64,000 nt of DNA. It comes from a virus. A program made the translations under genes and the position numbers. The stretch is taken from positions 32,001-96,000 of the IMG/VR virus record IMGVR_UViG_3300002092_001237, one strand, 5' to 3'. Below the pieces are notes generated by a model. It was not told the origin of the DNA and did not search any database. It saw nothing but the letters and a program-made list of their open reading frames with translations. Of this stretch, positions 28,101-46,462 are shown piece by piece (positions within the stretch are counted from its first letter, which is position 1; every line of letters starts with the position of its first letter).

Positions 28101-31100
28101 GGTTGGAATAATAGTATTAGTCGGTAATGCTGAATTTAAAGTTAAGGTAGCATATGATCCAGGACTAGTGGCTGTATATGCTGTAATAGTTCTAGTATAC
28201 CCCTTTGGAGTTACGTTTTGATCTACCCACCCAAATTCCATTCCTACTATTCTTGATTTGTCGATATCAGTTAGTTCATTTATGCGTATAGTAGTCGCTC
28301 CACCTATCGCTGCTGTGTTTGTAACGGTAGCTGTAACGTAGCTATAATTACTATCAATCGTTATAAGACTAGTACCGCCTTGATATGCATTTATAGTAAC
28401 CGGAACACTAACATTTCCAACCGATACGTTATTTGAATTAGTTATAACCCATGTTGATGCATTTGTTGATGATACTGTTATAACTGATCCGTTTATCCCT
28501 GTACCACTTAATATCAATCCAGCTGATAATGAACCGTAACTTGGACTACCAACCACATTTAAAGTAAACCCACTTATATAACCACTAAATGTACAGACCA
28601 GTGTTGGATTTTCGTTTAATGCTTCTGTAGTTCCATATCCTGCATCGCCTGGATTTCGACTGTTATTGTAATAATTAGATGATAGTGCGACAGTTCTATA
28701 ATTGTTAGAAATACCGTCATATGTAAAATCTAAAGCAGTTGAAGGCCGAGATGTTAGTCCTACGAAATTACCATAAAATTTAAAGATTTCTGTAGTTCTT
28801 AACACTACAAAATCACCGTCGTTCATATTTTCAGTGAATTTTGTCGATGCTCCGTCGATTCCGGTACCTAAGCTAATTTTTGCGATTTTAGTATTCAACG
28901 TCGCAGTAGCAGGAGTTGATAAAGTTGCCCCACTAATAATACCAATCGATGCCGGAATACCAAAGATAGTCCCCGCCGTTGGTACTCCAAATGTAAATGT
29001 GCCAGTTGCTGTTACAGGATTCACTAGGTTGGTGCTTATCGTAACCACAGCAGTAGTAGTAGTAAAAGTAGGTGAATTCATAGTCAGAGGAGTTAGATTT
29101 GGACCCGAGCTTACTAAAATACTCGACACATAAGTAGTAGCTGTTGAAGTAATAGGATTAGGAGTAGTTGAAAAAGTTACAGTCTGTCCGACCTGTAACG
29201 GACTTTCATAAACTGTAACTCCGGTTCCGAGCCCAGTTGTTGAGATACCATTATAGATGAAAGATGTTCCAATAGCTGGAGTTGCTACGCCAGTTGATAC
29301 ACCTATACTCCACCACTGGGCGGATGTAAGTACTACAGATCCTAGATTTGCAATATAGTATATCTTGTTTAAATTAGAATTACCTGATATACTTGCAAGT
29401 GGAATAGCAGTGTATGCAGTACCGGCAGTTGTAGTTATTTGGAAGGACGATTGCCCCGTAGTACCGATAGTATTACCGGTCATAGTAACAGCAGTAACAC
29501 TGTTTTTACTACTATTGTTTGTTATATTCCAAGTTGTTGTTGTAACACCTCCAGTTGACGTAGTTGATGCTAAACTATTGACAATAACATTATCAGTATA
29601 TGCAGCATTTGTGCCACCAGTCCATATTAGAACCATACCGGGTGCTATAGCACCATACGTTGGATTACCAGTTACTGTTAGAAGTGTCGGAGTTGCTGCT
29701 GCTATAGTTCCAGTAAAAGATGTAACTGCTAAACCAGGACTAGCCAGTGCGACCCCAGTACCACTAGTTCCACTATATGATGGACCAGAGTTTAACACTG
29801 GGAATGTACCGTTAAAATCCGCCGAGTTGGCTGGTAATCCGTTACTTAATGTTACAGACGATGGTACACCACTTATTGTCACAGTATCGTAAAATGTTAC
29901 AGTACCGCTAACCGCACCTGAATTAGGAGCACTCAACGTAACGGTATTTTCTTTTACCGAAACTACTGTTGGGAATAATTGTGCTGTTAAGGTAGCACTT
30001 GTAAATGTGAGATTATTGGGATTTGTTACAGTCCACGAATTACCACTGGATGTAATTACTATACCCGTTACAGATATGTTGTTAGGGTTTTTTATAACCC
30101 AGGATAATGCTGATCCCGATGATATAGACACTATCCCTGTTATACCAGTACCTGATAAAGTCTGTCCAACCGCAACAGTCCCTGACGTTACAGATTGTAT
30201 CGTCAGGGTAGTACCGGAGATTGAACCTGTAAATGTTGCTCCAGGTGTTGCAACAGCAACTACACGTATATTATAAGTTACGCCGCTGCCGGTTAGTAAC
30301 AAGCCGTTATTGATTAACTGTCCTGGAACTAGAGTCTGATAACCTGTAGTAGTTAAGGTAGTTAATGTTCCCGAAGCGATAGTGCCTGTAAATGATGTAG
30401 TAAGACCAATATTTGTCCCTGCAACTATCTGTCCTTGATAGATGTTATAATTTGGAGCTACTACCGTGGGCGAAGTGAAATTGTTTACGGCACTTACGAG
30501 AGTTATAGTGTAAGAACCACTAGAACCTGTAACATTAGTTACTTGGGGAGTTCCACCATTAGGTGAGGTAGAGAATCCGTGCTGTGTAGTACATGTTATA
30601 GAACCCACTCCAGCACCGCCTTTTGCGATCATTGATATCGATGCACTATTAACGACGGGAGTGATATTATTGATAGTATACGTTGTCTTACCTGCGACAG
30701 GATGATATACCTGTATTTCTGTTATTGAATATGGAACATAATCATATCCTACTATGGTCATAAGTGACCCGCTAGCAGCATTATAACTAGCTCCATTATA
30801 TACAGAACCCTTCTTATATATTCTAGCATATTGAGTTAAATTATCTGCAAGTGTTACATATCTAGGAACTTCTCCTGGATCGGAACCTTCTGCTTTTAGC
30901 CCAAAAAATCCGTTTGAATTTGATCCACTAACTGCACGTATCTGTCCACCATTGATAGAATAATATGCTGTATGGCAATAGTATGTAAACACACTGACTA
31001 ATTCCATCAGCGCATTATTGGTTACCATTATACCATATGCTATATCGTTTACCTGTGTAAAGTGTGTCGCTAGCATACTTTTATTACCAGCAGTTTCTAG

Positions 31101-34007
31101 CACTATACTAGTATTTGCGCTACTGTAAGCATCACCTAATTGTAGAACTGCTGTTCCAGTTGAATCAGTGAATGACACGATCTTATCGATCCTATATCGT
31201 AGCCCATTTACATAGAAAGCAGTTGGCGTACCTGGAACTCTATTAACTTTACCATTTAGTGGTCTAGCCTGTTTGAAAGTTAATCCTGATACTGTTATCT
31301 GTGTTACTGGAGTTCCCTGTGTTAAAGCAGTAGTTATGGTTACTGGTATTCTGCCACTATAACCATCGACTAATGCACCGCCACGGAACGCTTTGGCGTT
31401 AACGGATGCAGAAATACTTGAACAGTTTTGTATGTATGGCGACTTAGTTAATATCTGTCCTTCCGGATCTAATACTGTTGCGAATCCACCATGTCCTTGT
31501 ATAGTAAAATCTTTTAACCCCGTTGCATCGTTCATTAGGAACATATCAATGTCTTTGTTGTTCCTCGGCGGGTTGAATGTAGCACTGTTTGATAACGAAT
31601 AAGAAACTATATCAACTAACGCATTCGCAACAGTTACACCATCGGGGACAGTTGGTAGATTTGATTCTGCTATATATGCTACTGCACTATTTTGTGAGAC
31701 ACTATCGGTATTCAATTTAAAAGGAGTAGTAGTATATGTATCTAAAATCGTATGTGATAAAATATTAGGTATGAGTTGTTTTAAGTAATCAAGCCCTGCC
31801 TTACAGACGGTTCTGTAACCACTTGAGTTAGTATACACAGTAGTGTTATAGAATCTGTAAGCAGCATTAACTACACCAGCAGTATCACCTTTAATCAAAT
31901 CATCGCAGATAGCACTTATGACTAATCCAACATCTCTCTGTGATTTAGTTTTATCAAACGTATTGCTGAGACTATTTGTTGCCGCATAGTTTAGCATATA
32001 TTGATAGACTTCTGCTTGCATAAATGCACTGTTTAATGATAGCATCGTAGATGTGTTATTATATCCTCCAGCATTAATGTTAGAATATATAGTCTGACTG
32101 TTAACTGTTATATTGCTCGGGTTACTAATGGTCCAGCTGAGTCCAGATCCACTGGTAATCTTGATGGGACTGCTTATTCCTGATCCTGATAATACTTGAC
32201 CAACTGTAATCGTTCCAGTAACTGTTCCAGTAGCAACGGTTAATGTTCCCCCGCTTATGCTACCTGAGAATACAGCATATCCAGGACCGATGTCTAGAGG
32301 TTTAGTTGGATCTGCTAGATAATAATATCCATATCCCGTAGTAGCGACGATAGGAGCAGCGACACTAACTGATACGTTGTATGGATTGTTAAGAACCCAA
32401 CTAGATCCGCTACCCGAAGCGATACTGACTGATGCTGTTATATTACCGTTAGCTCCTGTTAAAAATTGGCCTGCTGCGATAGTTCCTGTTATTGCGCTAG
32501 TTACTGTTAATACGGATCCAACTATAGTTCCACTGAATGTAGCATTTCCGATAGCTGTATTATTTGTAGTCAATCCGTCGATCACAGGATCACGATAGAA
32601 GTACATAGACCTCCACGGACTTGCGCTAGCTGCATCCTTTGGACGTATGATAGTTCTACGCATTTCAGATCCAATGATACTGACATTTTTAGGAACACGG
32701 ATTGGCAGATGTTCTTCGTATATTCCACTCTCTAGATAAATGGCGACCTGTATCTTCGGAGTCGCCTGATCGAAATAGAGATTTTCCCCAGTTTGGAAAG
32801 TACCAATAGTGCCTTGTATATCGATAAGATCGTAACCGCTTACTACGCCCCAGTACTTATTGATCGTACCAACTGCTCCCGACGACCCACCTACGATTAA
32901 TTTATTAGTAGTCAAATCTAGATTGCTTGGGTTACCTTGGTCGACGGTATTAGTTCCGTTTAAATTGGTTATCTGTAGACGAGTAACAGTAACACCGTCG
33001 TTTGTTGCAGTACCTACTGTGTAAACCGTACTAAGACTCGCACCAGCATTGACAGTGATTGGTTGCTTATAGTTTCCTGGTTCGATCGATGAAGCATAAA
33101 CTATATCTTCGGCATATTTACAAGCTTCACTAACGGATGAGAACGCATAAGCTAGAGCACGACCAACCCTATCAGTAGGTACGCTACTATATCTCATCTG
33201 TGCTGTTGTTCTACCATTGGTGCTAACAAATAGATCAACAGTGCTAGGGAATTCGCTTATATCTACATAGTTTTTAGTCGCAGCATGTAGATCAACGGTA
33301 GGGTTAGCGTTAAGAGTTAAGGGTCCGGTTAGTGTATCTCCGCCACGGTAAACTACGTCTTTCCTCTGCATAACTTCTGTCGATAGATAATTGCTAGTTA
33401 GGGTAGCATCATATCCAGTTACACCGATTTGTGGTCCGGTCGGTTGTGACCTCGATGTTAATGCACCAGTCATAGTATCGCCATCTATATTGAGATAGTG
33501 TCTATCTCCGTAGCCTTTGGTTATAACAAAACTATCGATACCGGCAGAGCCAGTTGGACCTTGGAAACTATTAGCAGCATTGATCGCACTAGAACTATCT
33601 GGATCTAATATGTTACCGATACTGAATAATCCCTTACCGTCGAGAGAACCACCTAGACTAGGAGTGGAATCTTGAGATACCTTCGCGCCTTTATTGGTTA
33701 ATATGATCTTAGTTGGGTCAGTAGTGTAATCAACACCTATACCTGTTTCTGAACTGCCGTATAATTCTTTGGCTAATATATATTTCCCCGTAGCATTAAC
33801 GATGAACATACTATTCGGAACTAGTGCTTGATCTTGATTAGGATCGTAATCACTTAGAGAAGTAAAAGGTATACCGCCCGAGTTACCTTTGGTTATAAAC
33901 GAATATAATTCATAGAAGTTTTCATTGACTTTATTAAATGAATCTCTGATAGCATCACCGGTTGCATCGTTACCCTCTACACCGATATTAATAATTTTCT
34001 GTGTCAT
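25152..34007 (-). CDS. Giant (2951 aa) tail fibre/spike with gp9/10-like N-terminus and C-terminal intramolecular chaperone domain
   Basis: N-terminus INIG..GNDATGDAIRDSF.KVN.NF; beta-helix-like middle (GIYEE.LPI.VP..VSI.G.E.RR); C-terminus YADLAENY...YEPGTV...VALQGRVPCKV. Confidence 0.8.
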   Translation of the reverse strand: MTQKIINIGVEGNDATGDAIRDSFNKVNENFYELYSFITKGNSGGIPFTSLSDYDPNQDQALVPNSMFIVNATGKYILAKELYGSSETGIGVDYTTDPTKIILTNKGAKVSQDSTPSLGGSLDGKGLFSIGNILDPDSSSAINAANSFQGPTGSAGIDSFVITKGYGDRHYLNIDGDTMTGALTSRSQPTGPQIGVTGYDATLTSNYLSTEVMQRKDVVYRGGDTLTGPLTLNANPTVDLHAATKNYVDISEFPSTVDLFVSTNGRTTAQMRYSSVPTDRVGRALAYAFSSVSEACKYAEDIVYASSIEPGNYKQPITVNAGASLSTVYTVGTATNDGVTVTRLQITNLNGTNTVDQGNPSNLDLTTNKLIVGGSSGAVGTINKYWGVVSGYDLIDIQGTIGTFQTGENLYFDQATPKIQVAIYLESGIYEEHLPIRVPKNVSIIGSEMRRTIIRPKDAASASPWRSMYFYRDPVIDGLTTNNTAIGNATFSGTIVGSVLTVTSAITGTIAAGQFLTGANGNITASVSIASGSGSSWVLNNPYNVSVSVAAPIVATTGYGYYYLADPTKPLDIGPGYAVFSGSISGGTLTVATGTVTGTITVGQVLSGSGISSPIKITSGSGLSWTISNPSNITVNSQTIYSNINAGGYNNTSTMLSLNSAFMQAEVYQYMLNYAATNSLSNTFDKTKSQRDVGLVISAICDDLIKGDTAGVVNAAYRFYNTTVYTNSSGYRTVCKAGLDYLKQLIPNILSHTILDTYTTTPFKLNTDSVSQNSAVAYIAESNLPTVPDGVTVANALVDIVSYSLSNSATFNPPRNNKDIDMFLMNDATGLKDFTIQGHGGFATVLDPEGQILTKSPYIQNCSSISASVNAKAFRGGALVDGYSGRIPVTITTALTQGTPVTQITVSGLTFKQARPLNGKVNRVPGTPTAFYVNGLRYRIDKIVSFTDSTGTAVLQLGDAYSSANTSIVLETAGNKSMLATHFTQVNDIAYGIMVTNNALMELVSVFTYYCHTAYYSINGGQIRAVSGSNSNGFFGLKAEGSDPGEVPRYVTLADNLTQYARIYKKGSVYNGASYNAASGSLMTIVGYDYVPYSITEIQVYHPVAGKTTYTINNITPVVNSASISMIAKGGAGVGSITCTTQHGFSTSPNGGTPQVTNVTGSSGSYTITLVSAVNNFTSPTVVAPNYNIYQGQIVAGTNIGLTTSFTGTIASGTLTTLTTTGYQTLVPGQLINNGLLLTGSGVTYNIRVVAVATPGATFTGSISGTTLTIQSVTSGTVAVGQTLSGTGITGIVSISSGSALSWVIKNPNNISVTGIVITSSGNSWTVTNPNNLTFTSATLTAQLFPTVVSVKENTVTLSAPNSGAVSGTVTFYDTVTISGVPSSVTLSNGLPANSADFNGTFPVLNSGPSYSGTSGTGVALASPGLAVTSFTGTIAAATPTLLTVTGNPTYGAIAPGMVLIWTGGTNAAYTDNVIVNSLASTTSTGGVTTTTWNITNNSSKNSVTAVTMTGNTIGTTGQSSFQITTTAGTAYTAIPLASISGNSNLNKIYYIANLGSVVLTSAQWWSIGVSTGVATPAIGTSFIYNGISTTGLGTGVTVYESPLQVGQTVTFSTTPNPITSTATTYVSSILVSSGPNLTPLTMNSPTFTTTTAVVTISTNLVNPVTATGTFTFGVPTAGTIFGIPASIGIISGATLSTPATATLNTKIAKISLGTGIDGASTKFTENMNDGDFVVLRTTEIFKFYGNFVGLTSRPSTALDFTYDGISNNYRTVALSSNYYNNSRNPGDAGYGTTEALNENPTLVCTFSGYISGFTLNVVGSPSYGSLSAGLILSGTGINGSVITVSSTNASTWVITNSNNVSVGNVSVPVTINAYQGGTSLITIDSNYSYVTATVTNTAAIGGATTIRINELTDIDKSRIVGMEFGWVDQNVTPKGYTRTITAYTATSPGSYATLTLNSALPTNTIIPTGVSISAGIKSYGSSTISSSISGTGAVNTIVMASNSTFSYNGTYTRYVRIDSEIFSFTGISSTTTLTGVNRAQLGTVAAVHSTNAVVQEISGLLTANISTNRVTSHDFLNIGTGGYNTSNYPNSINGVPYEAKVDNNNAVDSVGSNTKAEVQEKNRGRVFFAATNQDGFFRVGRFFTVDQGTGTVSFSASIVLSGLTGLGFKSGVFITQFLNDATMPDIGDAVPTMSSVREYVNRRLGVDLNGTVSTSPIGSGFLPLQPGAGVTMKGTLDMGTNKIANVVAPSSGTDAANKSYVDQFLKLTGGTRYEIDLFVMGSTSQIAIATFARTGTTATIVTSQPNALSVGSIITISGLTDTSFNTTTTVTGIVSLSSFTYTTVSSTTVTSTPGGAGVVTVPDSIGMNSNKITNVGTPTDTADASTKGYVDTKANVAQLGDVLYTTPTGPTGSDMMVYSGTKWVNTRTAGDVVGALSATGPTGNILTYTIQSGAVVDSKVSATAAIDHTKLSIDNANASYGETITITGISGNGTTVTVTFSSPLQLDGLTPITGYTFPVGSRIVIAGVTGITGYNGTYIVSGATTNSAGSSTITYSSIISGVATLTTATIRSLRGAVSLDANQFTVSTGFASIKSNSLKLDRLLAISGNTVVGNSTAGAATPTAINFTAVVDGALAAAYSIPNSSVGTGVLTRLGSGQFGTITYSSTVISAQNLVSRDSSGNSTFGTVTAGAITSGGSITAGSITSGGSITAGSITSGGSITAGNLRISSIFGTTPAGVDAGEVFTWANSTINSNFTFSGGDNRVLSIGLNSNNHAYIRNYKGIDINSCDLYTLNILPLANATYNLGSSGLNWNLIYGTATQARYADLAENYVADQKYEPGTVLMIGGEQEVTLAKGQGTTKVAGVISEHPAHLMNSALEAEFVATVALQGRVPCKVIGKVSKGDMMVVSMVPGVAMASEDPRAGSIIGKALADYDGDRVSVIEVLVGKH
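25833..25942. repeat. 33-bp tandem repeat, about 3.3 copies, inside the fibre gene (AGSITSGGSIT)
   Basis: Unit acctgctgttatactaccaccagaagttataga starts at 25833, 25866, 25899, with a partial copy at 25932. Confidence 0.9.
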
Positions 34008-34019: not shown

Positions 34020-34346
34020 TTAAAACGCAAAACTAGTACCGCAGCCGCAACTTGATTTTGCGTTTGGGTTTTCGAAAACAAAACTGCTTCCAAATATCTC
34101 TCTCTTATAATCCAACTGTGTACCAAGCACAAACATTAAGCTCATACCATCTACTATAAATTTCTTTGAATTTACGTCAATTATTTCGTCATCATCGAGT
34201 AATTCTTCTTCGCTATCGATGAAGCTCCAATCATAACTAAATCCGGCACAGCCTCCGCCTTTAACGGCGAGCTTGACACCCCATTTATCATTTGATTCAC
34301 ATAGTTGCTGGATCTGTTGGCTAGCTGACTCTGTTATAGATATCAT
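34020..34346 (-). CDS. iscA: A-type Fe-S cluster carrier (HesB/IscA/ErpA family)
   Basis: GGGCAGFSY and NPNAKSSCGCGTSF motifs. Confidence 0.9.
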   Translation of the reverse strand: MISITESASQQIQQLCESNDKWGVKLAVKGGGCAGFSYDWSFIDSEEELLDDDEIIDVNSKKFIVDGMSLMFVLGTQLDYKREIFGSSFVFENPNAKSSCGCGTSFAF

Positions 34347-34455: not shown

Positions 34456-34725
34456 ATGTTTAATTGGTTAAAGAATCTTTTTGGCAATAAGGCTAAAGAA
34501 GAAGTCACTAAGGTAGAAGTAGCAGTTGAAAAGGCTGCTGAAGCTGCGGTTGCCGAAGTTAAAGCTGAGGTAGCAGTCGTTGAAGCCAAGGTTGAAAAGG
34601 CTGTTAAGACTGTAGCAGCAAAGGCTAAAAAGAATGTGACTAAGGCTGTTGCTAAAGTCGAAGAAAAAGTAGTCAAGACTGTTGCTAAAAAGGCAGCAGG
34701 TCGTCCTAAGAAGACTGCTGAATAA
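34456..34725 (+). CDS. Ala/Lys/Val-rich low-complexity protein, possibly histone H1-like
   Basis: AAGGAG RBS, CATAAATA box upstream, ends AKKAAGRPKK. Confidence 0.6.
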   Translation: MFNWLKNLFGNKAKEEVTKVEVAVEKAAEAAVAEVKAEVAVVEAKVEKAVKTVAAKAKKNVTKAVAKVEEKVVKTVAKKAAGRPKKTAE

Positions 34726-35734
34726 GTTCTTCCCGTAATGCGAAACTAGCAAGGTTCTTTGCCTTGCTTTCGCACATGATATCGAAATTGTCTAAGAAAC
34801 TGAGAGCCCACTGATTAACTGCTGTATTCCAGTAATAGTCAGAATGGGCTCGAAGTTTCTGTTTCTTACGTCCGCTTTCTAACAGCATACCCATATTGGG
34901 CATTACATCACGTTCATGAGTATCCAAGTAATCTTCGCGGCTAACAGAATAATGAAGAGTAGGCCGAACGTCACGCCAGCTCTCACTAACCATCTGTACA
35001 CGGTCATCGCCGGGGGAAATATACTCACCCTCACGGACCCAATGATGGTGGATATCAAGTACAATAGGCAGGAGATCCCTGAGCATAAGGCAATCATTAA
35101 GTCCATGGGCATTCTCCTCGTTCTCGATAGTTATCGTATTACGTGCCTCGGGTGAAAGTTTCTTATAAGCAGCACGTATGCCTTCGTGTCCTAACCGACC
35201 TGCGATATGTACATTACATTTAAAGTCTTGGAACTTTACGCCGTAGCCCATCCAACGGATCATGTCCACATGATATTCAAATTCTGCTATACTGCGTTCC
35301 ACAACATCTGGGCGATCACTGGCCAAGACAGTGAACTGGCCAGGATGAAAACTAAGGCGTACATCGTTGCGACGTGCCACATCACCGATCTTGCTGAAGG
35401 CTTTTTCACAGAAATTCTTGACAGTGCTATCGCTGTAGAAATAGCCAAAATTAGGCTCTGTATAGACAGGCAAAACGTCGCTGCCAATACGCACCATTCG
35501 AAGAGACTCATCTAACGCTCCTACACGTTCTACTAGATTCTGTACGGCTCGTATGTTATGGGTCATTAAGTCCCACAACTTTTGTTCTGCTACTTCACGT
35601 GTCTGGCGTCTAAGCCAAGCCACTGTAGTAGTGCTGTTGTTAAGTTCGGGTACTGCGACAACACCCTTGGGTGATGTCTCAGACCATTTACATGCGAAGC
35701 CTATGCGTTTAATCATGTTATTAGTATACGACAC
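34706..35734 (-). CDS. uvsE: UV damage endonuclease UvsE/UvdE
   Basis: RIGFAC, RLSFHPGQF, IENEE, LDIHHHW, RAHSD and E.KAKN motifs. Confidence 0.9.
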   Translation of the reverse strand: MSYTNNMIKRIGFACKWSETSPKGVVAVPELNNSTTTVAWLRRQTREVAEQKLWDLMTHNIRAVQNLVERVGALDESLRMVRIGSDVLPVYTEPNFGYFYSDSTVKNFCEKAFSKIGDVARRNDVRLSFHPGQFTVLASDRPDVVERSIAEFEYHVDMIRWMGYGVKFQDFKCNVHIAGRLGHEGIRAAYKKLSPEARNTITIENEENAHGLNDCLMLRDLLPIVLDIHHHWVREGEYISPGDDRVQMVSESWRDVRPTLHYSVSREDYLDTHERDVMPNMGMLLESGRKKQKLRAHSDYYWNTAVNQWALSFLDNFDIMCESKAKNLASFALREELIQQSS

Positions 35735-36430
35735 TTAACGCCAGTTGTCAACTATGATAGGGTCCTTAACTTCGTGTGGATTTGGTGTACCGTGGAAAGC
35801 CAGTACCGAAGTAGTAGGATCTAATTCTACATTCCGTATGCTATTGAAATTATATCGTCCATTTATACGTGCTAACTCAGATCTTTCTCGGGCTTCCCAT
35901 TTGTAACTAATAATCCATCTATCTGGATAGAATTTTATTTTGTTTTTATACAAAGACCAAATCCAATCTTGATCTCCTGGCATGCTTCTAATAATCCCAG
36001 GATTATTACCTATACCTTCCCATATTTCTGAATGAAATCCTGCTTCCCAACGCATAATAGCACTACATAATTTTTCAGCATTTTTCCATATACGACTAAA
36101 ATCATGTAACCCTACAAACTGTCCAGGTTGATACGAAATTAGACTGTTAATATTCCCAATGATAACCATATCGAGGTCGAAAAACAGGTTAGTATCTCCT
36201 TGTGGGAAATGATCTGCTTTAAACATGTAGGGTTTCCACCACCATCCGTGTATCTCAGCTCTACGGGGTAGTATTCTAATCTCAATTTTTGGATCTATTC
36301 CGTCAGGCCTATCTGTAAAGCAGACAAATCGATGAGGCACTGTTAGGTGCCTCTCGATCATGTTATAGAGATTATTAACATAAATGGCTTCGTATTTGGA
36401 CCCATGTTTTAAACAGATAACATTAAGCAA
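35735..36430 (-). CDS. GT-A fold glycosyltransferase-like protein
   Basis: VICLKHG.KY...FVCFTD...GWWWK...FFDLD...GDQDWI...FHG.PNP; likely TTG start at 36430 after GAGG. Confidence 0.75.
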   Translation of the reverse strand: MLNVICLKHGSKYEAIYVNNLYNMIERHLTVPHRFVCFTDRPDGIDPKIEIRILPRRAEIHGWWWKPYMFKADHFPQGDTNLFFDLDMVIIGNINSLISYQPGQFVGLHDFSRIWKNAEKLCSAIMRWEAGFHSEIWEGIGNNPGIIRSMPGDQDWIWSLYKNKIKFYPDRWIISYKWEARERSELARINGRYNFNSIRNVELDPTTSVLAFHGTPNPHEVKDPIIVDNWR

Positions 36431-36920
36431 GGAGATCCTCTCCCCAACATCTGTGACCCTCTCTAAAAGCCATGTTTGCTTGTGTCTCACGTACTTCTAC
36501 TCTGTAGCACCATAAACGTGCTGCTTCGCCTGGGCCCCACATGTCTGGGATGTACACTGTGTTGATGTACTTGTACAGCATGTCTGCTAGGCTTTCGCAA
36601 CCTAAATTGGGTAGAATAGTTAGTTTCATAATACCACGTTGTTCTGCTTCTTTATACCAGTCCAAGTGAGGATCTGATTCTGCTACTAAGGTGGTGTGGT
36701 CAAATTGACTCTCTAGGATCTTCTTAAGTTCTTTAAGTCCGCCGTAGTCTGCTGCCCAGTTACGCACATCTAGATCGTTGGTTCCGAAATAGAACTTCAT
36801 GCTGAAGCTGTAACCGTGGATCATATTACAATGGCTGTCTGCTCGCCACTGTCGGTATGCACACGGAAACGAATCGATGTATTCTTTAGTACTCGTATAT
36901 TTGTATGTAATCGGTGTCAT
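36423..36920 (-). CDS. queD: 6-carboxytetrahydropterin synthase (QueD/PTPS family)
   Basis: HCNMIHGY, DYG.LK, FDHT, CE.LA and V.V.ET motifs. Confidence 0.85.
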   Translation of the reverse strand: MTPITYKYTSTKEYIDSFPCAYRQWRADSHCNMIHGYSFSMKFYFGTNDLDVRNWAADYGGLKELKKILESQFDHTTLVAESDPHLDWYKEAEQRGIMKLTILPNLGCESLADMLYKYINTVYIPDMWGPGEAARLWCYRVEVRETQANMAFREGHRCWGEDLLA

Positions 36921-36928
36921 GCTCTTCT

Positions 36929-36991
36929 CCTATGTTTAATATAGCATAGGCTGCAGAATTTGTAAAGCGGGATGAAGCCATAAGCGCCGCT
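36929..36991 (-). promoter_or_regulatory. Candidate preQ1-I-like pseudoknot riboswitch with an SD-sequestering hairpin
   Basis: RNA AGCGG-CGCUUAUGGCUUCAUC-CCGCU-UUACAAAUUCUGC-AGCC. Loop GGCU can pair with AGCC, which overlaps the CCUAUG/CAUAGG hairpin covering the start of AGGAG. Confidence 0.6.
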
Positions 36992-36995
36992 ATTT

Positions 36996-37349
36996 TTACT
37001 TATCACGTCCAACTAAGTCCACAACATCTTTTCGAACTTCTTTGATTTCTTTGATAACATCAACTAACCCCTTGCTAGATTTTTCTAGGACATATGCGAG
37101 AACCGCGATCGTATATATCGCCCAGAACCACCATACTATGAAAACTATTACACCCATTCCTATAATAGAATCTATCAGCAGTTCCCAATGTCGGAAACCG
37201 TGTAGGTATAAGACTATTACGATGATAGTTAATATCGCGGGGCTAACTTTAGCAAACTTGTCCCAGAGGGAAACTTGCCAGATGATGTAATTAGGAGTGG
37301 CTTTGTCGGCCACCCCTGGGGGATTTTCATTCGTGTTGGGCATGACCAT
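36996..37349 (-). CDS. Two-TM membrane protein
   Basis: Two hydrophobic segments; GATAAATA box at 37352-37359. Confidence 0.55.
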   Translation of the reverse strand: MVMPNTNENPPGVADKATPNYIIWQVSLWDKFAKVSPAILTIIVIVLYLHGFRHWELLIDSIIGMGVIVFIVWWFWAIYTIAVLAYVLEKSSKGLVDVIKEIKEVRKDVVDLVGRDK

Positions 37350-38962: not shown

Positions 38963-39037
38963 TGGTGGGCGGTGAGGGTTTCGAACCCCCGACCCTCTGG
39001 ATGTAAACCAGATGCTCTACCGCTGAGCTAACCGCCC
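38963..39037 (-). tRNA. tRNA-Val(UAC)
   Basis: Cloverleaf; anticodon arm TCTGG-TTTACAT-CCAGA; encoded CCA. Confidence 0.95.
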
Positions 39038-39077
39038 ATGATCTTATATTACTATATATGTTGATCGTTGTCAACAT

Positions 39078-39107
39078 AAAAAAAGCAGTAGTGTCTCCAC
39101 TACTGCT
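39078..39107 (-). terminator. Intrinsic terminator after the porin gene
   Basis: GCAGTAGTG/CACTACTGC stem followed by T7. Confidence 0.8.
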
Positions 39108-39131
39108 CTTTTATTTCAGTCTAACTTGAAA

Positions 39132-39686
39132 TTAGAACTTGTAGTTTAGACCGATTGTGACAATGTTATTGTCCTTAATCTTCGTACTATCGGACCAAGT
39201 ATTGACAAAGCGATAACGTGCATCTGCTTCCCAATTCTTAGCAATAGCGTATTTCACACCGCCACCTACGTTGTAGATGGTCTTGTTACCGTCGCGAACG
39301 CCATCACGGAAATCGTGATTCTGAACGCCAACCCCTGCTAGTGCATATGGAGTGAAACCATAGAATGCACCAAATGGGCTAACAACACCATTGGCAGTTA
39401 CGCGAGTCTGGTTCGCTGAGGAACCCTTCTTGAACTGATTATCCACTGCGATTTCTGTAGCGAATAATGGGTTCCACTTGTAGCCAACTACGCCACCCAC
39501 AGAGGATGGATTGTCAGTTACGTTGCGGTCCATCTTTACTGCACCACCGGCATTAACACCGACGTACCAGCTCTCAGGAGCAGTTACGGCAGGAGCAGCA
39601 GGTGTAGCCTTCTTTTCTGGAAGATTCGCTGCAGATGCAACGGAAGCTGTCAAGATAAGAGCGACTGCTGTGATAATATTTTTCAT
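39132..39686 (-). CDS. Outer-membrane beta-barrel protein (Omp25/RopB- or OmpA-barrel-like)
   Basis: Signal peptide, AANLP..K..PAAP linker, WYVGVNAG, PYALAGVG, C-terminal GLNYKF. Confidence 0.8.
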   Translation of the reverse strand: MKNIITAVALILTASVASAANLPEKKATPAAPAVTAPESWYVGVNAGGAVKMDRNVTDNPSSVGGVVGYKWNPLFATEIAVDNQFKKGSSANQTRVTANGVVSPFGAFYGFTPYALAGVGVQNHDFRDGVRDGNKTIYNVGGGVKYAIAKNWEADARYRFVNTWSDSTKIKDNNIVTIGLNYKF

Positions 39687-39794
39687 TGTTTTTTCCTTTT
39701 GTTTAGAATAGTAATTATACACTTAAGACTTGTTGGATTACGAGTCTTGAGTTTCGACTACCCCGTTCATTCTTTTTTACAGAACCAACGAGTA

Positions 39795-40058
39795 TTATTT
39801 AGTTGTAAGAGGCTTTGCAATAACCGGTACTAAAACAACTGGAGTTGTATTTGCTACTGGTGCAACCATTGGCTTAATAACGACTGGAGTTGTTGGTGCT
39901 GGAGGTGCAACCATTGGCTTAATAACGACTGGAGTTGTTGGTGCTGGAGGTGCAACCATTGGCTTAATAACGACTGGGGTTGGGGTCGGAGCCGATGCTG
40001 CTGATGCTGCATTAACGAACGCAAAAAGTGCAAGTGCCACTGTTGTTGTCTTAATCAT
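39795..40058 (-). CDS. Secreted Pro/Val/Thr-rich repeat protein
   Basis: Signal peptide followed by TPVVIKPMVAPPAPT repeats. Confidence 0.65.
   Translation of the reverse strand: MIKTTTVALALFAFVNAASAASAPTPTPVVIKPMVAPPAPTTPVVIKPMVAPPAPTTPVVIKPMVAPVANTTPVVLVPVIAKPLTTK
39838..39980. repeat. 45-bp tandem repeat, about 3 copies, in the secreted protein gene
   Basis: ggtgcaaccattggcttaataacgactgg recurs at 45-nt spacing. Confidence 0.85.
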
Positions 40059-40119
40059 AACTTTTTTCTCCTGTGTGTGTTAAGTTATAAGTGTATATTA
40101 TAGTCTTATTTACGCCTTG

Positions 40120-40512
40120 TCAACCTGCGTGTTCTCGATAAAGTTTAAGACTTTCCGAGTTCAATGGTAAAAAATCCGTCGGTACAGATTCAACCTTAAA
40201 TCCATGCCCTTTGATGATTTTCTCTACTGTTTCGATCATCTCGTACCAATGAATATCGCTGATCCATTCAGTATAACCCGCCCCTTCATTTAGGATCATC
40301 TTCTTATAGTGCTTTTTTACTTCTCGTTCGAGACGTTCAATTTCTCCGCCGTCTCCAACCCAACAATGCTGCCAGTTACATTTAAAGCGAGGACCCAAAG
40401 CATTTTGATAAGTTCCAAGGCGACCGTGCGCCTTGGAAAGTGTTGTGATACCTGCCTTAGTATCGACTCCACCATCGGGCGGAGACATCAGGTAGAATAA
40501 TTTTTTAGACAT
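40120..40512 (-). CDS. Putative T5orf172/GIY-YIG-like protein
   Basis: FYLM...KAGIT...RL..YQ...E..VK...TEW pattern. Confidence 0.45.
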   Translation of the reverse strand: MSKKLFYLMSPPDGGVDTKAGITTLSKAHGRLGTYQNALGPRFKCNWQHCWVGDGGEIERLEREVKKHYKKMILNEGAGYTEWISDIHWYEMIETVEKIIKGHGFKVESVPTDFLPLNSESLKLYREHAG

Positions 40513-41626
40513 TGAATCGTACCACTGGAGCAGCTACAGGTTCATTATTGATATATTTGTTATAGATCAGTAACAGCCCACTAACAACCTGTACAGGGTG
40601 ATTATCACGACCAAGTGGATGCGTAGCTGAATACATAGACTTGATGTCTTCCTGCACTTTTTCTGCGCTACCGATATTGTTACGCAGATATTGACCTAGA
40701 TCATCGTCAAATTGTGCGCTAGGCATCTGGCCAATCTGAGCATCGCACAGCGCATATAGCATAGTCATAGGTCGCATAACTTCTGCTTCGATGCTCGCCA
40801 TGGGCCAATGTTTACGATGGAAAGTCAATGCTCGGGCGAGATACACACCTTTCATACCCATTTTATTTTGAAGTTCATAACATTCCCACAGTGCTTCAAA
40901 ATGCGTCACATCACCGGCTGTTCTCTTATAACGGTAAGGTTGGCAGTTATTAGCCTTAAGAATATTAAAGATAGATACGGTATCAACATCTTTAGTTTCC
41001 AAAAGAATCATAAATTCATCATACCCACCAACAGGACGCTTAAAGGTTTTATTAATTCGAATAAAACTACGACCTGCGAGCCCAATCATTGCTTCTTCGG
41101 CTTCGTCAAGTTCAGTCAAAGAAAGGTCATCAACGTCTGTATACCAAACAGGGATATGTGTCCAACCCCGGCGAATCAACAACTGTGATGTATGACCGCC
41201 GTCCCATAGACAAAAATGAACAACGCCATTAAGGTCTACAAATTTAACAGCACAGGGAACGATAATCATTCTGCTGTCAAAATTGGCTTCGATATTCTTA
41301 ATATGATTTGGAGCAACATCTCGCTGGAACCGAGGATCATAAAAACACTGTGACAATTCGACCCAAGCAAATTTAGGAATCTTTTTTAGTCCACGTGGAT
41401 CAATAGTTTGACGATTAATCAACGGATTACCAATAACAGCCTCAATACCATCGGCGATATCTAAGATAGGGATTCTTTTTCCAGGATAGTTATTAACCAT
41501 TTCACGGAGGTCGATCGCTTTATTCTCAACGTCAAATGGGATTTTAAATTTACCCAACCAGTTGCGGATTCGTTGCTTAGTCGGAATAACAGTAGTCGCG
41601 GTAATAGTAGTAAGTGACATTTTCAT
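40505..41626 (-). CDS. ParB/Srx-like (DUF6551/DGQH-type) protein
   Basis: DPRFQRDV...I..NFD...WDGGHT motif order. Confidence 0.55.
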   Translation of the reverse strand: MKMSLTTITATTVIPTKQRIRNWLGKFKIPFDVENKAIDLREMVNNYPGKRIPILDIADGIEAVIGNPLINRQTIDPRGLKKIPKFAWVELSQCFYDPRFQRDVAPNHIKNIEANFDSRMIIVPCAVKFVDLNGVVHFCLWDGGHTSQLLIRRGWTHIPVWYTDVDDLSLTELDEAEEAMIGLAGRSFIRINKTFKRPVGGYDEFMILLETKDVDTVSIFNILKANNCQPYRYKRTAGDVTHFEALWECYELQNKMGMKGVYLARALTFHRKHWPMASIEAEVMRPMTMLYALCDAQIGQMPSAQFDDDLGQYLRNNIGSAEKVQEDIKSMYSATHPLGRDNHPVQVVSGLLLIYNKYINNEPVAAPVVRFNV

Positions 41627-41744
41627 TTTATATCTCCAGTTTGCTAGATCTAATCTAGACTTTAAGGTTAACTCTTTAGTTTGTTAACTTTAAATACTAT
41701 ATGATATAATTTGATGTTAGTCAACCTGTATTTTAAAGGGTAAA

Positions 41745-41819
41745 TGGAGCGGGAGAAGGGATTCGAACCCTCGACATCAACCTTGGCAAGGTTGCGCTCT
41801 ACCCCTGAGCTACTCCCGC
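41745..41819 (-). tRNA. tRNA-Gly(GCC)
   Basis: Cloverleaf, CAACC-TTGCCAA-GGTTG, ends TCCA. Confidence 0.95.
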
Positions 41820-41831
41820 ATCCTTTATTTA

Positions 41832-41906
41832 TGGCTGAGGAACTAGGACTCGAACCTAGATTGACGGAGTCAAAGTCCGCTCTCCTACCGATTAGAGGAT
41901 TCCTCA
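41832..41906 (-). tRNA. tRNA-Gln(UUG)
   Basis: GCGGA-CTTTGAC-TCCGT, U1-A72, ends GCCA. Confidence 0.93.
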
Positions 41907-41910
41907 ACAA

Positions 41911-42107
41911 TGGCGGCCCGATATTGACACGTTTTGGATGAGCAGGCTCGGGCCAACACCTCCTCCGTAGATAGGTACTGTCTGAAACCTATCCAGTTTG
42001 TGCTAGCTAGGCTAGCGCAATGTGTGGAAAGATAGACTCCACACGGTCTTCTATACAGGTCCCTGCTTGCCCCTATATAGACTGACGGTATTTTTTGCAG
42101 GACCGCC
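41911..42107 (-). ncRNA. Candidate structured ncRNA (~197 nt) ending in CCA
   Basis: Four hairpins, a possible pseudoknot and a GGCCCGA/TCGGGCC-G-CCA end; lies between tRNA-Lys and tRNA-Gln. Confidence 0.6.
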
Positions 42108-42112
42108 AAACT

Positions 42113-42186
42113 TGGTGAACCTACCGAGATTCGAACTCGGATCAACGGATTAAAAGTCCGCTGCTCTACCATTGAGCTATGGGTCC
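42113..42186 (-). tRNA. tRNA-Lys(UUU)
   Basis: GCGGA-CTTTTAA-TCCGT; one acceptor-stem mismatch; encoded CCA. Confidence 0.9.
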
Positions 42187-42215
42187 TAAGACCCATAACA
42201 CACAGGTCTTTGTTG

Positions 42216-42719
42216 TTAATCGTGTCGCGGCATAGTGGCCGCTTCTTTTACGATTTCAATTACTTCATCTAACGAAGAACAGATAATTTTAGTTGTAATC
42301 CAATTATCATCTTCGCTACGTCCACCTACTTCTACCATATATCCATTGTCATACATGTTGATAGTAAATGACTCGTTAACCTTATGTAGTTTATCTGAGA
42401 TCTTTGTAGTCATAACACTTTTCCTTTGTTTTAAGTTGTGGTATCGAACGATATATCCGTCATGTAAATTTTCTTCATTACGAACAAGCCAGTTACTTGT
42501 TACATTACTTTGAAGAATACCATATTTGGTGACAGATTGTTTTAGTTGTTTACCATTATCTGTTGTATTAGCTAACGGAATATGTATTTGTCCACTACCC
42601 TCTAATCTCGATAAGACATCATGTAAGATTGGTTTAAAAAACTCAAAACTAACAGTATCTTTTGTAGATTCTGGGGTATCAGTACCATATGCTTCTTGCC
42701 AAGTTTTTGTCTTAGTCAT
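42216..42719 (-). CDS. Hypothetical protein (possible internal start at MTTKISDK)
   Basis: GAGG RBS at the 5' start and AAGGA before the internal ATG. Confidence 0.5.
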   Translation of the reverse strand: MTKTKTWQEAYGTDTPESTKDTVSFEFFKPILHDVLSRLEGSGQIHIPLANTTDNGKQLKQSVTKYGILQSNVTSNWLVRNEENLHDGYIVRYHNLKQRKSVMTTKISDKLHKVNESFTINMYDNGYMVEVGGRSEDDNWITTKIICSSLDEVIEIVKEAATMPRHD

Positions 42720-42728
42720 GTTTTCCTC

Positions 42729-42998
42729 TTATAGTGTTACGTGGTCTACTACTTCGTCTCGGTAGATTACGATCTTAGCAGTAGTATGCTCTCTTACGAA
42801 ATCTTTAATACGAGCATCAATATAAAGATCTAGGTGCTCTCTCATCTTATTCTTAGATGGATCGTATCGGCTTTCTTTAATACTATCTCGTCTATTAACA
42901 CTACCGCGTTGTTCGGCTTCCCAGGCATCGTCGGCAGCATCCATCATTTCTTCTAGTTCATCACAAAACGCATTCCAGTGTTTGTCTTGCTCGCTCAT
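42729..42998 (-). CDS. Hypothetical protein
   Basis: GAGG RBS; 89 aa. Confidence 0.5.
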   Translation of the reverse strand: MSEQDKHWNAFCDELEEMMDAADDAWEAEQRGSVNRRDSIKESRYDPSKNKMREHLDLYIDARIKDFVREHTTAKIVIYRDEVVDHVTL

Positions 42999-43014
42999 CG
43001 TTTCCTCATATAGT

Positions 43015-43089
43015 TGGCTGGAGTGGCAGGATTCGAACCTGCGACCAAGTGATTAACAGTCACCTGCGCTACCGCTGCGCCACACTCCA
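43015..43089 (-). tRNA. tRNA-Asn(GUU)
   Basis: GGTGA-CTGTTAA-TCACT, ends GCCA. Confidence 0.95.
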
Positions 43090-43095
43090 ACATTT

Positions 43096-43171
43096 TGGTG
43101 CCCCAGGAGAGATTCGAACTCCCACCACCTGGTACCTAAAACCAGTGTCTCTACCATTGGACTACTGGGGC
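43096..43171 (-). tRNA. tRNA-Leu(UAG), short variable loop
   Basis: CTGGT-TTTAGGT-ACCAG; 5-nt variable loop; A73. Confidence 0.9.
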
Positions 43172-43223
43172 AATCTTAATGTTCCTTATATTAACAGCAT
43201 TTACTTATTGTGTCAACCTTTTA

Positions 43224-43832
43224 TTACCAGCCCCACCATTTCGTTAGATACTGTGGTCGATTTGCTCGCAACCACGGGAGTGCATCGTTATTTAATTTGT
43301 TGTAATCAACACCTACAGTCTGTGATCCAACGTGATGTACATATGCTCGTGATATAAAGTTTTTAAATCCCTGTTCGTTTAGATCTTCGCAGATCACATC
43401 ATCTGAATACCAATTTAATGGTCCGAACTGTGCAACATCAAACGCTTTCTTTGAGATCCAAGCAAATAAAGGTGATACAACACTAGCTTCTAAACATTGG
43501 CTTCCGTCGTTATGTTTAATATGTTGTGAATCACGGACGAAATCGGCTCTAGTTGCGACTATGCCTACGTTATCCCTATACTGCTGTTTTAACTGTTCAA
43601 CGTCTTCCATGAGTATTCTCATAGTGTCTGGGCGTAACACAATATCATCATTTGCAACGATCATTTCATCACAGGTTTCAAATACTTCACTCATTGCAGC
43701 ATTGTATACTTCACCAAACGTAGCAGGGGCAGGACGAAATATGTTTAAAGTTGCTTCGGGAGCATAGTGTTTAACACTAGCTTCCATCATTGGTAAGCAG
43801 GGCGATCCTGCTGTGCATACTACGATATTCAT
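43224..43832 (-). CDS. Family 2-like glycosyltransferase
   Basis: FG..YN.A...NDDI...WYSDD...YVHHVGSQT motifs. Confidence 0.75.
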   Translation of the reverse strand: MNIVVCTAGSPCLPMMEASVKHYAPEATLNIFRPAPATFGEVYNAAMSEVFETCDEMIVANDDIVLRPDTMRILMEDVEQLKQQYRDNVGIVATRADFVRDSQHIKHNDGSQCLEASVVSPLFAWISKKAFDVAQFGPLNWYSDDVICEDLNEQGFKNFISRAYVHHVGSQTVGVDYNKLNNDALPWLRANRPQYLTKWWGW

Positions 43833-43852
43833 TTTAACCTTTCTTATATTGT

Positions 43853-43929
43853 TGGAGCATCCGGAGGGATTCGAACCCCCGACCGTCGCGTTCGAAGCGC
43901 GAAGCTCTAATCCACTGAGCTACGGATGC
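43853..43929 (-). tRNA. tRNA-Arg(UCG)
   Basis: TCGCG-CTTCGAA-CGCGA; encoded CCA. Confidence 0.92.
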
Positions 43930-43939
43930 GTTGCCTGTC

Positions 43940-44035
43940 TCGGCTACTATTGTAATACTCGGCTGTAGGTGACTAACCCACAATATCTCACCCCGTTAAG
44001 GGGAGCCACCGATTGCTATTAACAATAGTAGCCGA
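43940..44035 (-). ncRNA. Candidate structured ncRNA (~96 nt)
   Basis: Perfect 14-bp terminal stem enclosing two hairpins. Confidence 0.55.
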
Positions 44036-44039
44036 TCTA

Positions 44040-44125
44040 TGGTGGGGCGTCCTGGTAACGATCCAGGCCAGTGCTTAGACGCTGGATTTACAGTCCAGAC
44101 CCCGTCCTTAGAGGTATACCGCCCC
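44040..44125 (-). tRNA. tRNA-Tyr(GUA), atypical T-loop
   Basis: CTGGA-CTGTAAA-TCCAG, long variable arm, T-loop ATCGTTA. Confidence 0.88.
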
Positions 44126-44219
44126 TTAACTCTTATTTTAACTATAATACCGTTGGCCTATTTTGTCAACTATTATAATAGTAGCAGATAATTAATATTA
44201 ATCCAAAAGGAGATATAAG

Positions 44220-44579
44220 ATGGATATTATTAATCAGATCCACGGCAGCAGTTTTGCTCTTGCTGTGATTGTTACAAGCGTAGTATGGTATATTGCTTTT
44301 AAAATTTATGCATGGTGGCTTAAGAAAGAACTAAAAGAACAGATGCATAGCGATCTTCCTCTAAGTATGGAAGACATTGAGCATAGCCGTAATTTAGAAA
44401 GAGCAGTGCATGATGTAGAACTACGTCGTCGTGATCTAAAGATCGCAGAACAAAAGCTCGCAGTAGCCGAAGCTGATGCTAAGGTAGAAAGTAGCTTATC
44501 TCGTATCGACGAACTTAATCATGAGATTGAAGTTGTTAAGATCGACAAAGCAGCTAAGAAAGCTATCACTAAAATCTAA
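44220..44579 (+). CDS. Membrane-anchored coiled-coil protein
   Basis: AAGGAG RBS, N-terminal TM segment. Confidence 0.6.
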   Translation: MDIINQIHGSSFALAVIVTSVVWYIAFKIYAWWLKKELKEQMHSDLPLSMEDIEHSRNLERAVHDVELRRRDLKIAEQKLAVAEADAKVESSLSRIDELNHEIEVVKIDKAAKKAITKI

Positions 44580-44656
44580 TGGTGATCTCGGCATGACTCG
44601 AACATGCGACCCACGGTTTAGGAAACCGTTGCTCTGTCCAGCTGAGCTACGAGACC
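44580..44656 (-). tRNA. tRNA-Arg(CCU)
   Basis: ACGGT-TTCCTAA-ACCGT; encoded CCA. Confidence 0.93.
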
Positions 44657-44666
44657 GATAAAAAAG

Positions 44667-44813
44667 TTGAGAGGGACGAGTGTCGACCCTCTTTTCAATA
44701 TCCGGGTTCCCAAGGTTAAAAGAAATTCCCCTTAGGGACTCTTACCCGACCTCGATGTGGTTGGTTCACTATGTGAACGATCAACTCATCCGTGCTACTA
44801 TACTGCCTCTCAA
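44667..44813 (-). ncRNA. Candidate structured ncRNA (~147 nt)
   Basis: TTGAGAGG/CCTCTCAA terminal stem, internal hairpins, T-arm-like 3' part. Confidence 0.55.
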
Positions 44814-44817
44814 AACT

Positions 44818-44907
44818 TGGCAGAAAGGGTGGGATTCGAACCCACGGAACGCTCTCACGTTCGTCAGTTTTCAAGACTGAAGGCATCAACCGCTCGCCCA
44901 CCTTTCC
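44818..44907 (-). tRNA. tRNA-Ser(UGA)
   Basis: TCAGT-CTTGAAA-ACTGA; long variable arm; G73. Confidence 0.93.
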
Positions 44908-44912
44908 AAACT

Positions 44913-44989
44913 TGGCGACCTGTAGGGGTAACGATCCCCTCATCTCTAGCGTGACAGGCTAGCGTCTTCACCATGCCGACTCACAGGCC
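44913..44989 (-). tRNA. tRNA-Asp(GUC), atypical
   Basis: CTAGC-CTGTCAC-GCTAG; G at position 8; T-loop ATCGTTA. Confidence 0.9.
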
Positions 44990-44998
44990 AATATTCTC

Positions 44999-45110
44999 TA
45001 GATGCGTAGGCGCTCGAATCCCTCACCAGCGGACGCTTTGGACCTGTCCACCCCGGAGCCACCCAACGGGCTGGGCACCATTACCCCATTAAGGCTCGAT
45101 AACGCATCTA
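44999..45110 (-). ncRNA. Candidate structured ncRNA (~112 nt)
   Basis: TAGATGCGT/ACGCATCTA terminal stem with GC-rich internal hairpins. Confidence 0.55.
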
Positions 45111-45114
45111 ATCT

Positions 45115-45191
<77 letters not shown>

Positions 45192-45197
45192 ATAAAC

Positions 45198-45614: not shown

Positions 45615-45682
45615 ATGTTCTCCTAACTGTTAAACTTAGTATATAATATGCTAGCATTTCTGTCAACCTGATAAATATTGCT

Positions 45683-46069: not shown

Positions 46070-46299
46070 TGACTAAACTAAATGAACTCGTAGGTTGTGG
46101 CCACGGATGGGCCGAAGAACGTGCTCAGATGGCAATGGATATAATCGAGCAACGTAATAGCGGTGCTATTACACCCAGTGAGGCTAAAGAATTGCTCGAA
46201 GACCTAGTTGCTACTGATAAACTAGAAGCAGTAGCAGACAATATACAAGTTAAAGCAGCATTGATCAGTGCGATCTCTATCGCTGCTAAGTTTGCTTAA
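46069..46299 (+). CDS. Hypothetical protein
   Basis: TAATG coupling to the lipoprotein gene. Confidence 0.55.
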   Translation: MTKLNELVGCGHGWAEERAQMAMDIIEQRNSGAITPSEAKELLEDLVATDKLEAVADNIQVKAALISAISIAAKFA

Positions 46300-46300
46300 T

Positions 46301-46377: not shown

Positions 46378-46381
46378 ATAT

Positions 46382-46456: not shown

Positions 46457-46462
46457 ATAACT

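Follow-up and report, generated by a model that had tools for sequence, protein, structure and literature searches.

A leader element of uncultured phages upstream of a QueD-like gene looks like a new relative of the preQ1-I riboswitch

The 75-base leader of the queD-like gene in this uncultured phage carries, at 36991-36929 on the minus strand, an RNA element that appears to be a new preQ1-I riboswitch relative confined to phages. Comparison of homologous leaders establishes, with near certainty for a result of sequence analysis, an H-type RNA pseudoknot joined to a two-state platform. The reading that we favor, at a probability of roughly 0.6, is that the two together would act as a translational ON riboswitch that senses a ligand and that has so far been seen only in uncultured, mostly large phages. 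The element would work like a preQ1-I-type pseudoknot, yet it falls outside RF00522 as that family is defined. That a ligand is bound, which ligand it is and in which direction regulation runs in vivo are what we infer.

Positions refer throughout to the window, by which we mean the whole 64,000-nucleotide stretch of DNA that was analysed. The leader is bounded by the stop codon of a 117-aa ORF (36996-37349) and the ATG (36920-36918) of the regulated 165-aa gene, and the RNA from P1 through P2 is about 43 nt long (Table 1). An earlier note on this DNA had described a stem, AGCGG/CCGCU, that closes a loop ending in CAUC, with CGC in place of the UUC that usually follows P1 in class I preQ1 aptamers. 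Both are present, the loop enclosed by P1 in the window being 16 nt long and ending in UCAUC, and L1 beginning with CGC. The complementarity that had been proposed between GGCU in the loop and a downstream AGCC was confirmed, as was the CCUAUG/CAUAGG hairpin that reaches the start of the AGGAG Shine-Dalgarno (SD) sequence. The description of the element as phage-encoded and placed directly upstream of a QueD-like gene is likewise supported.

Table 1. Features of the leader element and of the gene that it would regulate, in window coordinates
Feature	Positions	Strand	Remarks
P1 5′ strand AGCGG	36987-36991	-	pairs with 36966-36970
L1 CGCUUAU	36980-36986	-	family consensus N-C-U-U; extra G in the window's clade
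P2 5′ strand GGCU (pseudoknot)	36976-36979	-	pairs with AGCC at 36949-36952
L2 UCAUC	36971-36975	-	C36971 invariant, immediately 5′ of the P1 3′ strand
P1 3′ strand CCGCU	36966-36970	-	top two C invariant; G-C closing pair
L3 UUACAAAUUCUGC	36953-36965	-	13 nt; 5′ half A-rich, 3′ end invariant U-C-Y-G-C
P2 3′ strand AGCC	36949-36952	-	CC common to P2 and the sequestering hairpin
SD-sequestering hairpin CCUAUG-N10-CAUAGG (putative expression platform)	36929-36950	-	arms 36950-36945 and 36934-36929
Shine-Dalgarno AGGAG	36927-36931	-	6 nt 5′ of the ATG; start overlapped by the hairpin
Embedded sigma70-like promoter (predicted)	36938-36966	-	-35 TTTACA, -10 TATATT; promoter scan
GATAAGTA box, likely phage promoter element	36997-37004	-	TAA[AG]TA enrichment; presumptive promoter function
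Regulated gene, PTPS/QueD-like, 165 aa	36423-36920	-	PF01242, phrog_2389; signature CxxxHGY

Homologous leaders were collected by two routes. The window's QueD-like protein retrieved 470 related stretches from IMG/VR, and the same leader element was present in 73 of the 80 best QueD-like loci among these 470. A gene-blind pattern that combined just L2, the P1 3′ strand and L3 matched at least 120 viral stretches. Among the 80 pattern matches listed, 77 have a QueD-like ORF directly downstream, with 29-86% identity to the window's protein, and the remaining three have no P1 and were dismissed as chance. The two routes combined gave 157 distinct homologous leaders from uncultured phage contigs, and the link of the element to QueD-like genes is exclusive. 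With a covariance model built for the element (R1), each phage contig shows a single strong copy (47-62 bits); the weak secondary matches in related contigs fall within coding sequence and were discarded. A pattern scan of 185,579 bacterial and archaeal genomes returned 33 matches, 28 of which lacked a complementary P1 and a QueD-like gene and were set aside as chance. The five true copies (L217, L222, L231, L236 and L242) are on MAG contigs of 4-8 kb that carry the labels Bacteroidetes, Crocinitomicaceae, Nitrospira and Chitinophagales. Misbinned phage DNA is the probable source of these copies, and the strong SD sequences together with TTGACA/TATAAT promoters point to proteobacterial-type hosts, contrary to the MAG labels. 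Model R1 found no motif in nine cultured phages with QueD-like genes. BLAST against cultured phages gave chance matches only for the leader and, for the 1.2-kb region, 67% matches only, all of them within CDS.

The evidence for the pseudoknot comes from these relatives. As a single sequence, the nested fold is no better than that of shuffled sequences (MFE -14.2 kcal/mol against a mean of -15.4, z = +0.45). The earlier note had proposed aligning related leaders as a check on its two helices, and this alignment gives strong covariation in both. P1 is 100% paired in 47 leaders, three of its five pairs have changed on both sides, and its 5′ strand occurs as six variants that are each fully paired (AGCGG, AGAGG, AGUGG, UGCGG, ACCGG and AUCGG). 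P2 is 93.3% paired, with compensatory changes in all five pairs and 19 extra pair types, in an ungapped alignment that was chosen by register and comprises 68 of the 157 leaders plus the window. The P2 covariation score in this same-register alignment is 0.987, compared with 0.300 in shuffles (reached in 0 of 500) and at most 0.227 when slid, shuffle counts that overstate the significance because the sequences are related. In an unselected MAFFT alignment P2 is 72% paired. There are dozens of P2 helix types, for example GGCU/AGCC, GGCG/CGCC, GGCA/UGCC and GGUG/CACC, and also GGCAU/AUGCC, GACGC/GUGUC, GACUU/AAGUC and ACGAC/GUCGU; some subgroups require a bulged A or have a P2 of only 3 bp. In a test that involved no selection of leaders, the energy of the cognate loop-tail duplex was better than that of 5000 of 5000 permutations, a result that holds for 41 distinct tails. 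Conservation of the sequence starts exactly at the first base of P1.

The single-stranded parts are conserved as well. The last base of L2 (C36971 in the window) is C in 156 of 156 leaders, where it is preceded by U in 125, C in 25 and A in 6, and positions 4 and 5 of P1 are G, with C as their partners, in all 156. In 148 of the 156 leaders the second and third bases of L1 are C and U; the first is variable (C in 60, U in 59, A in 37). L3 is always 13 nt long in these 156 leaders, with A3, A7, U9, C10, G12 and C13 invariant. The invariant unpaired positions look like a ligand pocket, in which C36971 is a candidate for the base that would confer ligand specificity. L3 positions 4 and 6 co-vary with the third pair of P1: leaders with C-G at this pair have Y4 and A6 in L3, and those with A-U or U-A have A4 and mostly Y6. 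This covariation, which comprises few independent events, suggests a contact of L3 with the groove of P1. Two other uses of the leader were considered and rejected. The AUG in the window's loop is not kept in relatives, which argues against a leader peptide, and most relatives lack the U tract that would be expected if P1 terminated transcription of the gene before it.

One stretch of the RNA supplies both the 3′ strand of P2 and the 5′ arm of a helix that would hide the ribosome-binding site (RBS), and the design of this helix varies by subgroup. Over the SD it takes the form of CCUAUG/CAUAGG (as in the window), CCUC/GAGG or GUCUUC/GGAGAC, and over the start codon that of GCCAUC, GUCAUC or GUCGUC with GAUGGC, or of CAUUGUU/AACAAUG. 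In folds of the platform only, 137 of 157 leaders have the P2 3′ strand paired to downstream bases, as against 53% in a control in which the first 10 nt after L3 were shuffled, and the strand touches bases of the SD or the AUG in 108 of 157, as against 35% in that control. The pairing from head to RBS is cognate-specific, its level being reached by 0 of 5000 permutations. Mean energies are -8.5 kcal/mol for the sequestering duplex and -5.6 kcal/mol for P2. The window's hairpin alone has -5.8 kcal/mol, and the residual UAUG/CAUA that is left once the CC is in P2 has +0.4. Since the sequestering duplex is on average the stronger of the two, the default state should be OFF, and since the P2 3′ strand also pairs with the SD or the AUG, formation of the knot should free the ribosome site. 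The ON logic that had been suggested for the window, a pseudoknot that frees the SD, is supported in the predicted structures by a P2 that competes with the RBS-hiding helix, and the arrangement recurs in several unrelated platforms. On comparative evidence the leader therefore has what is expected of a riboswitch, namely a conserved structured aptamer in the 5′ leader and an alternative pairing that would control the RBS.

A simple mechanism can be proposed. The RNA would start at P1 or just upstream of it and fold into an H-type pseudoknot with a P1 of 5 bp, a P2 of 4-5 bp and L3 lying along P1, so that the invariant C would adjoin the likewise invariant G-C pair at the top of P1. P2 would be stabilised by a small ligand bound between it and P1, one whose 2-amino-4-oxo edge is guanine-like. 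In the ligand-bound aptamer the P2 3′ strand would be occupied and the RBS of the QueD-like gene open; in the free aptamer the stronger sequestering helix would form and the RBS would be hidden.

The closest known system is preQ1-I (RF00522), whose types I-III include the RNAs of B. subtilis queC, T. tengcongensis, C. antarcticum and E. coli. PreQ1-I RNAs are H-type pseudoknots with a conserved G-C floor and, just 5′ of the P1 3′ strand, a specificity cytosine that is strictly conserved; they have in L1 a U6 that reads the N9-H of preQ1, an L3 adenine (A29/A30) by P2 and an OFF response that works through burial of the SD, and none of the known members of the class is an ON switch (PMC11625349, a 2024 review). 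Like these RNAs, the phage element forms a small H-type pseudoknot in which P1 has 5 bp, L2 about 5 nt and P2 4-5 bp; it has an invariant C before the P1 3′ strand (156/156), a G-C closing pair (156/156) and an A-rich stretch after P1, and it precedes a gene of queuosine-pathway type that would be controlled at translation. Unlike them, it has a longer L1 with the consensus N-C-U-U, in which the first base is variable and not U, and an L3 that is fixed at 13 nt and ends in UCYGC instead of adenines that run into P2. Its SD is outside P2, the 3′ strand of which would serve as anti-SD or anti-AUG and make the switch ON instead of OFF, and it is found only on uncultured phage contigs.

The resemblance to class I preQ1 aptamers that the earlier note had seen in the window extends to the H-type layout and not to membership in the class. 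The pseudoknot, the specificity C and the G-C floor of preQ1-I are all there; the L1 U, the L3 adenine and the OFF wiring are not, the SD is outside P2, and the search with the Rfam PreQ1 covariance model that had been suggested as a check gave no match at the site. RF00522 alone, run on the whole record, had nothing at the site and one 11-bit match elsewhere (threshold 39 bits). All of Rfam returned only tRNAs from the whole window at the gathering threshold and, from the 301-nt region at E up to 10, two chance matches and no PreQ1; three leaders of other subgroups gave chance matches only and none to preQ1. The freshwater-2 RNA (RF02980) was rejected as a candidate: its match in one leader (L034:2898-2994; 16.9 bits, E 1.2, threshold 49.9) owes its score to the SD/AUG region and to a hairpin in the promoter spacer, 5′ of the aptamer, and there is no match in the window. 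Among the catalogued Rfam RNA families, then, none matches the element.

Two other groups of riboswitches are of interest for their function. The ZTP and PRPP riboswitches are ON switches that sense a pathway precursor, and the logic that we propose is alike in that a precursor would turn on the enzyme that consumes it; the comparison is a functional one only, as their folds and sequences are unrelated to the phage element and they have no Rfam match to it. THF-I and THF-II (the folE motif) are small OFF-switch RNAs that read a pterin via its guanine-like edge. They are alike in their GTP cyclohydrolase/folate neighbourhood but have different architectures, are OFF switches and give no Rfam match, and the FolE gene of the phages lies outside the switch.

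A sigma70-like promoter, which the earlier note had overlooked, appears to be embedded in the window's element. It consists of a -35 box, TTTACA (36966-36961), a 17-nt spacer and a -10 box, TATATT (36943-36938), on the minus strand, and it matches the consensus at 10 of 12 positions, with an extended -10 TG in the spacer. The -35 box runs from the final base of the P1 3′ strand through base 5 of L3, and the -10 box is in the loop of the hairpin. Of the 75 leaders with the CCUAUG platform, 63 retain the -10 box and 34 of these read exactly TATAAT; among the 82 other leaders just one has it. The promoter is probably a real extra feature of the window's subgroup. A transcript from it would be without the aptamer and the 5′ arm of the hairpin and so would provide a second, unregulated mRNA. 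A sigma70-type promoter with its end 6-9 nt 5′ of P1 is also present in 31 of 156 leaders, compared with 2-6 in offset controls, and ten of the 31 are perfect TTGACA-16/17-TATAAT. In addition, the 20 nt that precede P1 contain TAA[AG]TA 98 times in the 156 leaders, compared with 4.1 times per 20 nt farther upstream, a 24-fold difference. In the window the GATAAGTA box ends 5 nt before P1 and overlaps the stop codon (36996-36998) of the 117-aa ORF. Since these promoter-like elements are located just 5′ of P1, the aptamer is probably at the 5′ end of the transcript. Boxes of the GATAAATA/GATAAGTA type recur 2-37 nt before minus-strand ORF starts of the window, for example at 63569, 58497, 56943, 55573, 37358, 37004, 25146, 24436, 20550 and 14731 on the minus strand. 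They may be the phage's own promoter type, and they resemble the T4 late promoter, TATAAATA.

The 165-aa protein matches PF01242 (PTPS; 7.7e-15) and phrog_2389, "QueD-like 6-pyruvoyl-tetrahydropterin synthase" (3.7e-36), and its TIGR03367 QueD score of 34 bits is below the 89-bit cut-off. Canonical QueD, the CPH4 synthase, has the motif CxxxHGH (PMC10516641). In 158 of 160 family members the motif is instead CxxxHGY, with Y for the second His, and Y or F is found at the first zinc histidine of the family; H30, C31, H35, D74 and H75 are near-invariant in the window's protein and 160 relatives. The CxxxHGY variant also occurs in cultured phages, where its neighbours are queC and folE, which makes a QueD-like activity plausible.

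The surroundings of the gene are varied. Downstream of it on the minus strand are a glycosyltransferase-like protein (phrog_1962; 35735-36490), which follows queD in 26 of 186 loci, a UvdE UV endonuclease (34706-35734), which does so in 50 of 186, and an IscA/HesB-type Fe-S protein (34020-34346). Rfam tRNA matches mark 21 tRNA genes on the minus strand at 38966-49361, and a 2951-aa ORF (25152-34007, minus strand) is near this region. The tRNA region contains a homologue of the Vut_1/YhhQ-family transporters (48499-49233, minus strand; 6.1e-22), which was not found in four related large contigs, and a 201-aa ORF (46633-47238), the one plus-strand ORF of the tRNA array that was scanned, has no Pfam family. 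Three related phage contigs of 156-382 kb (G001, G002 and G004) encode 14-17 radical SAM proteins each, of about 320-820 aa; in G001 these genes are at about 241-271 kb, most of them in one array at about 252-271 kb.

As for the ligand, TGT/DpdA had no match in 17 large motif-bearing contigs, three of which are at least 95% complete. None of the 17 had a convincing QueC; two weak matches to the first third of the QueC model are probably a generic ATPase region. PF06508 had no match anywhere in the 107.7-kb record. FolE was present in four of five motif-bearing contigs tested, and in 73 of 186 loci, counted without de-duplication, it is encoded upstream in the same orientation and outside the switch. 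The idea of the earlier note that the ligand may be other than preQ1 gains weight from the 17 contigs without TGT/DpdA or a convincing QueC and from the FolE in four of five. Our best guesses, a FolE-made pterin, for example 7,8-dihydroneopterin triphosphate, and a 7-deazaguanine (preQ0, preQ1 or CDG), are about equally likely. The guess is guided by context, because it would be illogical for an end product to switch on the gene for its own biosynthesis. Feed-forward control, in which the substrate dihydroneopterin triphosphate or another guanine-faced compound is the activator, would, we infer, make sense, and it would spare the folate branch unless the precursor is plentiful. We tentatively raise the possibility of a phage-only riboswitch class that reuses the preQ1-I fold, binds a ligand other than preQ1 (the FolE product or another pterin) and turns on the QueD-like enzyme by feed-forward, with a bypass by a host-type promoter in one subgroup.

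An alternate explanation, which we consider rather doubtful, is that the element is a true class I member that binds preQ1 or preQ0, in effect a fourth type, and is wired ON, either as positive feedback or so that QueD is licensed only when the deazaguanine pathway of the host runs. This would account for the shared fold, the invariant specificity C, the G-C closing pair and the A-rich 5′ half of L3, and it would agree with a QueD-like gene whose protein relatives are found beside queC and folE in cultured phages. One relative is encoded by the Pseudomonas phage iggy, the DNA of which contains dPreQ0 (PMC10484667), and the window encodes the YhhQ/Vut_1 transporter homologue. However, even with E values of up to 10 the site is not matched by RF00522, L1 does not open with a conserved U, L3 ends in UCUGC and not in adenine, and the known class I members include no ON switch (PMC11625349). 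The 17 large contigs without TGT/DpdA and a convincing QueC also argue against it, and activation of the second step of a pathway by its end product has no obvious logic.

What the evidence covers is the two-state architecture, and the leader could in principle be a ligand-independent RNA switch, in which the pseudoknot and the sequestering helix would make up a kinetic or thermal timer, or a protein operator, whose conserved loops would be bound by a phage or host protein (possibly the QueD-like protein itself) that sets translation. Phages do use translational operators, and the conserved single-stranded bases could equally be contacts to a protein. We nevertheless think this quite unlikely, since the layout is that of small ligand-binding pseudoknots, with an invariant C stacked on an invariant G-C, and since L3 has a fixed length and co-varies with a P1 pair. 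The element moreover persists across QueD-like proteins down to 29% identity, and a partner protein would have to persist across very different phage contigs. It is highly improbable that the conservation reflects nothing other than a DNA promoter for queD (TTTACA/TATATT) and no RNA. The match of 10 of 12 positions with an extended -10 TG and the retention of the -10 in 63 of 75 subgroup leaders would fit such a promoter, but the compensatory changes in P1 and P2 would be left unexplained, the 82 leaders from other subgroups conserve the same L3 and include just one with a matching -10, and in many leaders a consensus promoter lies 5′ of P1 instead. The promoter is therefore better seen as an added feature of one subgroup than as the explanation. 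A translational ON riboswitch that senses a ligand remains the reading that we favor.

No description of the element was found in the literature searched, and the key papers on phage 7-deazaguanines are silent on any riboswitch. Its carriers are hundreds of uncultured phage contigs, some of them 220-380 kb long and at least 95% complete, and include none of the isolate genomes searched. Riboswitch classes are few and almost all of them were discovered in cellular genomes. If the more tentative possibility of a phage-only class with a ligand other than preQ1 holds true, the element would be the first ON switch with the preQ1-I fold and the first riboswitch class known only from viruses. The fold is one of the smallest known for an aptamer, and with its pocket altered and its logic inverted it would illustrate the re-tuning of a minimal fold. 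Its ligand would reveal what these phages do with a FolE and QueD-like pair without the rest of the 7-deazaguanine pathway, possible uses being queuosine for phage tRNAs, a pterin product or something else.
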